UHGV virus genome: UHGV-0185973
Source: a virus
DNA length: 64,000 nt
Strand: one strand, 5' to 3'
Below are positions 30,976-31,043 of this stretch, in pieces (within the stretch, counting starts at the first letter, position 1; each line of letters begins with the position of its first letter). Under the pieces are notes generated by a model. It saw nothing but the letters and a program-made list of their open reading frames with translations, ran no database searches and was not told the origin of the DNA. The position numbers were made by a program, and so were the translations under genes.

Positions 30976-31004
30976 TTGACAGACTTTATTGGTTACTTTA
31001 GAGT
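30976..31004 (+). promoter_or_regulatory. sigma70-like promoter (TTGACA-N17-TAGAGT) bracketed by inverted repeat
   Basis: TTGACA 30976-30981, TAGAGT 30999-31004; TGACAGACT (30977-30985) and AGTCTGTCA (31002-31010) are inverted repeats. Confidence 0.5.
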
Positions 31005-31043
31005 CTGTCACATCAAACAACAAATGAGAGAAGAGAGATAAAC

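Follow-up and report, generated by a model that had tools for sequence, protein, structure and literature searches.

Putative sigma70 promoters laid over intergenic hairpins in a Felix O1-like phage genome

The virus genome UHGV-0185973 was analyzed as a stretch of 64,000 nucleotides (the window), which represents a Felix O1-like myovirus. At position 30976, within the 80 bp that separate a DUF5681 gene (30589-30963) from a DUF2828/DUF7788 gene (31044-32459), it carries a sigma70-like promoter that is spanned by an inverted repeat, raising the question of what purpose a hairpin across a promoter could have. We consider it rather probable that this element is one of a series of composite modules, in which a sigma70 promoter for the downstream gene is laid over a hairpin belonging to the RNA of the upstream gene. 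This reading is built on comparisons with related genomes, ranging from Escherichia phage pEC-M719-6WT.1 with 98% identity to the window over 29.0-33.0 kb to Shigella, Citrobacter, and Escherichia relatives (ESh21, Michonne, phiSUSP1) with approximately 84% identity. GenBank yielded approximately 290 relatives.

The hairpin at 30976 and the architecture it shares

A first-pass annotation of this DNA had described at least six promoters, with those at 6077, 8524, 30976, 32477 (here 32478), 32568, and 61262 listed by position, as sharing one architecture of promoter plus inverted repeat. This description held for all six, each being a sigma70-like match overlapped by an inverted repeat, and it reaches further, as approximately 15 additional promoters show a comparable overlap, six of them being copies of a repeated element referred to here as the type-A cassette (Table 1). 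An A-rich, UP-like tract lies just upstream of most of the six named promoters. Evaluated against dinucleotide shuffles, the RNA folds reached z-scores of -5.9 at 6077, -3.4 at 8524, -3.9 at 32478, and -4.6 at 61262, and of only -1.75 at 32568. On a more general level, the median fold z-score of 14 intergenic, co-oriented promoters was -2.0 compared with -0.09 for 34 promoter-like matches in coding DNA (Mann-Whitney P=0.02), and perfect inverted repeats of at least 7 bp overlapped promoter cores 11 times, with 6.1 +/- 2.3 expected from the non-coding background (P=0.038). The overlap of promoter and hairpin is real, with a modest effect when measured against this non-coding background.

At the 30976 site, the -35 element is invariant in 27 relatives and the -10 element reads either TAGAGT or TAAAGT. 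The repeat turned out to be longer than described before (16 bp instead of 9 bp), combining an outer pairing of GGTGT (30972-76) with ACATC (31010-14) and an inner pairing of GACAGACTTTA (30978-88) with TAGAGTCTGTC (30999-31009), so that the stem spans the promoter from about -38 to +4. Its minimum free energy (MFE) is -22.5 kcal/mol as RNA, with a z-score of -7.15 against dinucleotide shuffles, and -7.4 kcal/mol as DNA (z -3.3). Across 14 distinct relatives, 93.8% of the stem cells are paired; five pairs changed, each on one side only and all via G.U, and the arms outside the hexamers (GACT/CTGTC and GGTGT/ACATC) are complementary in all relatives. The stem is conserved, then, without covariation. 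Applying the criteria of an intrinsic terminator, i.e., a GC-rich stem of at least 5 pairs, a loop of 3-8 nt, and a subsequent T-tract, the 30976 hairpin does not qualify, having a 10-nt loop and AAACAACA in place of the T-tract. A reverse-strand promoter-like match arising from the same palindrome was rejected as not being conserved in the relatives, and L029, L031, L033, and L035, in which the homologue of the downstream gene is distant, lack a sigma70-type promoter and were uninformative.

Type-A cassettes and single-copy promoters in related genomes

Among the evidence from relatives, the type-A cassettes provide the strongest case. Six copies of this repeated intergenic element are located at 17.2-21.0 kb of the window, reading, after the stop codon, TAAAGT-A-CTTTACA-N-GGGGYTTA...loop...TAARCCCC-AGATAAAG-A-RCTTT. 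The window and 19 related contigs together contributed 111 copies with 48 distinct inner segments, in which stem positions were counted inward from the GGGG/CCCC anchors. This anchor-based pair table replaced an RNAalifold evaluation of the MAFFT-aligned 48 cassettes, which returned invariant pairs only, the register of the inner stem being shifted by a 1-nt indel. Positions 1-4 of the stem are invariant G-C pairs, followed by C-G (24) or T.G (22) with no A.C at position 5, T-A (37) or A-T (10) at position 7, A-T (35) or T-A (8) at position 8, and A-T (19), C-G (10), T-A (7), or T.G (8) at position 9. Within positions 5-9, G.T occurred 32 times and A.C once. At the same time, a TAnnnT motif is found 17 nt past TTTACA in 43 of the 48 distinct cassettes (18 nt in four), with T1, A2, and T6 of the -10 element each fixed in 92-94% of copies, positions 3-5 varying freely, and an extended -10 TGn present in 30 of 47 copies. 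Since the stem covaries while T1, A2, and T6 stay fixed, the same bases preserve a -10 signature and a base-paired stem at once. In IMG/VR, the cassette pattern retrieved only approximately 30 Felix O1-like contigs, with several copies each.

The cassettes also bear on the earlier proposal that such elements act as recombination modules. The early region of the window (11.5-23 kb) is strongly mosaic relative to its closest relative, OQ845957.1. When each of 20 related genomes was coded as a string of ORF (open reading frame) families and cassettes, units composed of one ORF and one type-A cassette were found inserted, deleted, duplicated, and permuted. Examples are the presence or absence of units ('13 A 14 A 0' vs '13 A 0' vs 'A 0'), a duplication in L130 ('14 A A 14 A'), and a swapped order ('3 B 18 A 23 A 5' vs '3 B 23 A 18 A 5'). 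Breakpoints relative to OQ845957.1 coincide with cassettes or terminators (5385/5578, 11545/13440, 18952/19274 with a 37-nt overlap, and 19753/21203). The six type-A copies would thereby serve as homology for a recombination shuffling ORF-plus-cassette units. The proposal is supported for the type-A cassettes and not for the unique 30976 site, and the support is correlative, given that every mosaic of whole genes must have its boundaries in intergenic DNA.

Single-copy promoters add further examples of variation. At the rIIA promoter (6077), four lineages carry different hairpins at one place, each with complementary arms, namely GGCTATACAG/CTGTATAGTC in the window, GTGGCA-CTATA/TATAG-TGCCAC in L036, GAGGTA.../...TACCTC in L037, and GGTGCAG/CTGCATC in L055. 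Two compensatory double changes separate L037 from L036, and both sides changed in 4 of 11 pairs; in the Felix O1-type clade, a 35-nt gap removes the hairpin together with the -10 element. The rIIB promoter (8524), a site annotated as promoter in phage AYO145A, has its stem GGGGCT/AGCCCC conserved in all relatives around a variable tetraloop. The hairpins at 32478 and 61262 are conserved in relatives, the former with T.G variants and the latter with an exchange of T-A for C-G at an inner pair, and the terminator hairpin at the 9755 promoter shows a G-C/C-G exchange. At 32568, AACACTA pairs with TAGTGTT in the window and in the Michonne-type loci L004-L006, whereas in most other relatives the -10 element is spanned by a pairing of AACCACT with AGTGGTT. 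As a side observation at the rIIA locus, a small ORF outside the gene call (approximately 5950-6073), resembling a zinc-ribbon peptide, ends in ...CCPYCNGSGKKFKK-stop, its last codons forming the A-rich tract upstream of the promoter; the Felix O1-type clade possesses this ORF without the promoter.

Function of the hairpins: RNA, DNA, or coincidence

The strand on which the structures fold better was compared throughout the relatives. Within the cassettes, the sense RNA folds better in 47 and the antisense RNA in 22 (Wilcoxon P=0.0014), with corresponding counts of 10:0 at 61262, 8:0 at 9755, 6:0 at 32478, 6:0 at 25817, and 6:1 at 5298. For the sequences of the window, sense and antisense folds reached -13.4 vs -8.8 at 6077 and -15.5 vs -5.8 at 37998. 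The strand asymmetry together with the asymmetry of G.T and A.C favours a structure used as sense-strand RNA.

These data are relevant for a control on DNA level, in which the repeats would either extrude as cruciforms or be bound by a dimeric protein of the phage or the host, switching the promoter with supercoiling or infection stage. The precise bracketing of -35 and -10 by the repeats would suit such a switch, as would the significant DNA folds (z -3.3 to -6.8), the short loops of 4-5 nt at 6077, 8524, and 32568, and the conserved arm sequences at 30976. A cruciform, however, needs both strands paired, and is disfavoured by the ratio of 32 G.T to one A.C in the cassettes and by the better sense folds, which point to one strand used as RNA; loops of 10-18 nt, as present at 30976 and in the cassettes, are in addition unfavourable for extrusion. 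No operator half-site shared across the promoters was found; the arms are of different sequence from promoter to promoter and covary inside each family, arguing against a common operator. Promoters with an inverted repeat in single-stranded or extruded DNA are represented by those of the phage N4 virion RNA polymerase and by Frpo of the F plasmid, which rely on short specific template-strand hairpins or have both boxes rebuilt as a duplex within the stem. Here, in contrast, the boxes stand at normal sigma70 duplex spacing. Hairpin-promoter models of the N4/Frpo type and operator models were set aside because one strand folds preferentially and the promoters share no half-site, and we regard control on DNA level as very unlikely. 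The earlier suggestion that a hairpin modulates promoter use was likewise left unsupported, as G.T is tolerated and A.C is not, the sense fold exceeds the antisense fold, and the predicted start only follows after the 5' arm.

The latter point was evaluated for 22 modules, with the start being predicted 6-8 nt past the -10 element. On average, the region from stop to start codon folds with -22.5 kcal/mol and the predicted own leader with -5.7 kcal/mol, and in nearly all modules the 5' arm is located upstream of the predicted start. Because the 5' arm precedes this start, the complete hairpin would be formed only in RNA read through from the upstream gene. The cassettes illustrate this, their read-through hairpin comprising three tiers with approximately 20-22 bp and -24 to -26 kcal/mol, while the own leader, with its predicted start at the A that follows CCCC, has almost no structure (-1.5 to -4.3 kcal/mol).

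From these comparisons we infer promoter activity, the exact starts, and an effect of the hairpin on the RNA. In the favoured composite module, the host RNA polymerase with sigma70 would start the downstream gene from a promoter overlying the hairpin, the 5' arm of which begins in or just after the -35 element and the 3' arm of which reaches the predicted start or extends a few bases beyond it. A transcript initiated at this promoter would lack the 5' arm and have an open leader, and a read-through transcript would form, immediately past the stop codon, a stable stem of 6 to approximately 22 bp. The hairpin would most likely end, attenuate, or process the upstream message rather than affect initiation. 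With a U-tract (5298, 9755, 25817, and partly 32478) it would act as a canonical terminator; without one (30976, 6077, the type-A cassettes, 37998, and 61262), attenuation, processing of ribonuclease (RNase) III type, or a block of 3'-exonucleases may be expected. Each gene would thereby have its own insulated promoter within approximately 80 bp.

For the hairpins without a U-tract, a more specific alternative is that they are RNase III-type processing sites, as in the early region of phage T7, and not terminators. Cleavage would separate the cistrons, leaving a protective 3' stem on the upstream message and a downstream 5' end near the promoter's own start. The RNase III hairpins of T7 are intercistronic, imperfect duplexes of approximately 20 bp with internal loops within early polycistronic RNA made by the host RNA polymerase. 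The cassettes are similar in shape, forming an imperfect duplex with a 2x2 internal loop and bulges, and the 61262 hairpin (12+7 bp with an internal loop) and the 16-bp stem of 30976 are of comparable kind. This likeness, however, is one of shape only, the T7 sites do not overlap promoters, and short GC stems such as the 6 bp at 8524 are too small for RNase III. Moreover, in the promoter-early stem-loops (PeSLs) of T4-like phages, the stem-loop assayed by Arbiol et al. acted as a terminator (PMC2839356). Processing by RNase III is considered a possible but doubtful explanation.

Several observations weigh against the composite-module reading as such. Most promoter-embedded hairpins, including that of 30976, have no U-tract, rendering intrinsic termination doubtful for them, and all start sites are predictions from the -10 element alone. 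The 30976 site is exceptional in its sense-to-antisense count of only 7:5; zero two-sided compensatory changes were found in its stem among the 14 distinct relatives, where the shuffle control was not exceeded, and its conservation could reflect constraints of promoter and initial transcript alone. In orthologue alignments, a hand count restricted to columns being Watson-Crick in the window gave a G.T to A.C ratio of approximately 5:5 for AT-rich hairpins, compared with approximately 8:0 for canonical terminators; this count is biased by taking the structure from the window fold and was not used for the AT-rich hairpins. The type-B promoters (18865, 19711, and 21693) and the promoter at 16738 have no embedded hairpin, and a putative promoter at 30437 in a divergent region shows a weak -10 repeat though no co-directional gene lies upstream. 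Finally, the excess of repeats over the non-coding background is only about twofold.

This last point leads to the question of a packing coincidence, i.e., of independent promoters and terminator or 3'-stabiliser hairpins overlapping through very short intergenic spacers, with AT-rich repeats such as that of 30976 being functionless and conservation being due solely to the -35 and -10 elements, the discriminator, and the initial transcribed sequence. The non-coding DNA holds 49 inverted repeats in 8.1 kb, of which 38 lie away from promoter cores, mostly at ordinary terminators. The first-pass annotation had named equally frequent repeats off promoters as an observation that would speak against it; hairpins are indeed common throughout the non-coding DNA, yet their density is approximately twice as high over promoters. 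A coincidence would also accommodate the missing double change at 30976 and the weak z-scores at 32568, 34038, and 19711. It is opposed by the covariation within the spacers of the cassettes and at rIIA, showing that the pairing itself is selected, and by the 30976 stem, the length and z-score of which are accompanied by G.U retention at every one-sided change and by complementary arms outside the hexamers. We judge a mere packing effect to be unlikely.

Relation to known systems and neighbouring features

Elements combining promoter and stem-loop have been described as PeSLs in the T4-like phages RB49/phi1, PST/T4, and nt-1/KVP40 (Arbiol et al. 2010, PMC2839356; Comeau et al. 2014, PMC4122927). 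A PeSL consists of a sigma70-like early promoter, an AT-rich upstream tract, and a stem-loop (PMC2839356); terminator as well as promoter activity was demonstrated for those of RB49/phi1, and PeSLs act in the modular shuffling of ORFans (PMC2839356; PMC4122927). Judged by sequence, every defining feature of the PeSL type appears to be present in the window. The putative promoters are near-consensus sigma70 promoters with an AT-rich tract upstream of -35, and the intergenic order is upstream stop, element, Shine-Dalgarno, and next start codon. All five positional classes of the stem-loop (PMC2839356), which include those between the boxes, over either box, upstream of -35, and just after -10, are represented, with a G-run/C-run stem filling the spacer at 8524. 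Repeated, conserved copies among small variable ORFs are provided by the type-A cassettes only, the unique elements 30976, 6077, 8524, and 61262 lacking this feature. Between close relatives, the elements flank insertions, deletions, replacements, and reorderings, again a correlative finding, which includes the presence or absence of the rIIA promoter.

In contrast to these similarities, the phage investigated here is not T4-like, no sequence similarity to the published PeSL consensus stems exists, and several hairpins are much longer (16-22 bp), wrapping the whole promoter including -35 without a U-tract. Furthermore, terminator and promoter activities, as well as excised mini-circles produced by recombination of neighbouring elements, belong to the features of PeSLs, whereas the present elements are known from sequence. 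For termination or attenuation of upstream transcription, they offer indirect support through the sense-strand RNA signature and, in a minority of elements, a U-tract. A farther-reaching scenario, to which we assign a low probability, is that Felix O1-like phages independently evolved a PeSL-like system with -35 to approximately +10 in one long sense-RNA hairpin, an RNase III-type site, and ORF plus cassette as portable expression module. If this were true, cleavage and initiation would give near-identical 5' ends and the same monocistronic message for each small early gene.

The Felix O1 genome paper lists direct repeats of 57 bp and 39 bp, left uninterpreted, and five promoters, and states as unknown how transcription passes the many terminators and how its timing is controlled. 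The two repeats correspond to the type-A and type-B cassettes. The GenBank record of AYO145A contains separate, overlapping promoter and terminator features (including the 9755 site), with the type-A cassettes unannotated, and we found no description of a promoter-in-hairpin architecture within the literature on promoters, stem-loops, and intergenic regions of Felix O1 and Ounavirinae. The design, known from T4-like PeSLs, has apparently not been described for Felix O1-like phages. Overlaid promoters would represent a candidate answer to the terminator puzzle of Felix O1, each terminator or hairpin carrying its own restart promoter. They would extend the PeSL idea of portable promoter/terminator cassettes driving modular gene shuffling beyond T4-like phages and suggest a general solution in large virulent phages relying on host RNA polymerase. 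As insulate-and-promote elements of approximately 60-80 bp, they may serve as practical parts when Felix O1-like phages are annotated and engineered for therapy.

Table 1. Putative promoters with the hairpins, terminators, or cassettes assigned to them in the window
Feature	Positions	Strand	Elements
Flagged sigma70-like promoter	30976-31004	+	-35 TTGACA 30976-30981, 17-nt spacer, -10 TAGAGT 30999-31004
Hairpin around flagged promoter	30972-31014	+	16-bp stem, one bulged T, 10-nt loop
Putative rIIA promoter	6077-6107	+	TTGACA-18-TATAGT; hairpin 6084-6107, GGCTATACAG tttt CTGTATAGTC, over spacer and -10
Putative rIIB promoter	8524-8552	+	TTGACT-17-TAGAAT; spacer filled by GGGGCT gaaa AGCCCC (8530-8545)
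Putative promoter 32478	32470-32506	+	TTGACA-17-TAATAT; hairpin 32470-32501, AAAGGGTATT...AATACCCTTT, encloses -35; T-tract runs into -10
Putative tRNA-cluster promoter	32568-32597	+	TTGACA-18-TATAGT; spacer hairpin 32574-32592, AACACTA/TAGTGTT
Putative promoter 61262	61262-61319	+	TTGACT-17-TAATAT, extended -10 TG; 12+7 bp repeat 61272-61319
Putative promoter 5298	5298-5349	+	TTGACA-16-TATTAT, directly followed by canonical terminator 5326-5349; predicted start inside 5' arm
Terminator and putative promoter 9755	9726-9782	+	Terminator 9726-9751, T-tract overlapping -35 of promoter 9755-9782 (TTGTGA-16-TATAAT)
Type-A cassette copy 1	17203-17263	+	TTTACA (17212)-17-TAGGAT in three-tier hairpin; read-through -25.2, own transcript -4.1 kcal/mol
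Type-A cassette copy 2	17548-17604	+	TTTACA (17555)-17-TAGTAT
Type-A cassette copy 3	18151-18206	+	TTTACA (18158)-17-TAAGAT
Type-A cassette copy 4	19216-19273	+	TTTACA (19224)-17-TAAGAT
Type-A cassette copy 5	20008-20066	+	TTTACA (20016)-17-TACCTT
Type-A cassette copy 6	20954-21009	+	TTTACA (20960)-18-TACCAT
Putative promoter 21599	21599-21638	+	TTGACA-17-TACATT; hairpin CCCCT...AGGGG (21608-21638) encloses -10; z -2.7
Putative promoter 25817	25764-25817	-	TTGACA-18-TAACAT (25817 down to 25788), abutting terminator 25787-25764; predicted start inside 5' arm
Putative promoter 34038	34029-34066	+	TTGACA-17-TATAGT; inside weak inverted repeat ATAAAGT...ACTTTAT; z -2.0
Putative promoter 37998	37998-38041	+	TAGACA-17-TATACT; 17-pair hairpin 38004-38041; -10 in its loop and 3' arm
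Type-B modules	18865-18893, 19711-19739, 21693-21721		TTGACA or TTGCAA, 17 nt, TAAATT or TAAAGT, then ACTAATCAGACGGG...; small GC hairpin in 5' leader

With respect to termination, the hairpins at 5298, 9755, 25817(-), and partly 32478 resemble intrinsic terminators, as a stem rich in GC with a short loop and a subsequent T-tract lies directly past the stop codon; full canonical terminators are present at 5326, 9726, and 25787(-). The hairpins at 30976, 6077, 37998, 61262, and in the type-A cassettes differ by the lack of a T-tract, many having AT-rich stems or long loops. Ordinary terminators away from promoters are located at 1732, 11524, 13278, 29358, 48911, and 61913, and the stem AGGCTCC-NNNN-GGAGCC with a T-tract behind it recurs as a terminator at five sites (5329, 11524, 13278, 27844(-), and 61913). 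Two promoter-like sites beside terminators were not retained: that at 27893(-) was rejected, its -35 corresponding to the lysin codons L-D-A and its -10 not being conserved, and that at 1702 is doubtful and probably no promoter. An Rfam scan of the window returned tRNAs only, no hairpin reaching the gathering score of a known RNA family.

At 61262, the 5' arm of the hairpin (from 61272) lies within the spacer and the 3' arm downstream of the start, with an RNA fold of -21.0 kcal/mol. Within 61262-61342, part of the 3' arm (CACCATCTT) is complementary to the ribosome-binding site further downstream (AAGGTG), which it could mask in transcripts initiated at this promoter; in read-through RNA of the tail-fibre gene, the 3' arm is predicted to be held by the 5' arm. 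Type-A and type-B cassettes end in the same ribosome-binding block CCTAAACTGGAGAWTCTAAAATG.

Further observations concern regions poor in ORFs. A segment of 0.5 kb without an ORF (16312-16819) contains three to four direct repeats of approximately TTTCATTTTCAATTTGTGCAGGT...ACTCCAAAG, followed by two TTGACT promoters, and may represent either another class of promoters or a region resembling an origin; a TTTGTGCAG motif in the spacer of the 9755 promoter resembles these repeats. Approximately 2 kb at 22040-24000 lack any ORF of at least 45 aa, are only 82% matched in the closest relative, and are dense in inverted repeats, e.g., CTATATAG palindromes at 23557-23585 and AGCCCCT/AGGGGCT pairs at 22093-22146 and 23712-23754. 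Where the leftward gene block gives way to the rightward one, the divergent intergenic region (30340-30588) harbours tandem TTGACA boxes at 30437 and 30449, followed by four inverted repeats at 30460-30566.

The DUF2828/DUF7788 gene downstream of the flagged promoter encodes a 471-aa product, for which the phages Michonne and phiSUSP1 have the annotation 'RNA-binding protein'. The gene is immediately followed by the tRNA cluster, which comprises 23 tRNA genes in the window (32.6-37.9 kb). Two tRNA-like genes not reported by ARAGORN were obtained with Rfam at 32709-32780 and 34391-34469, the former being annotated as tRNA-Glu in the closest relative.

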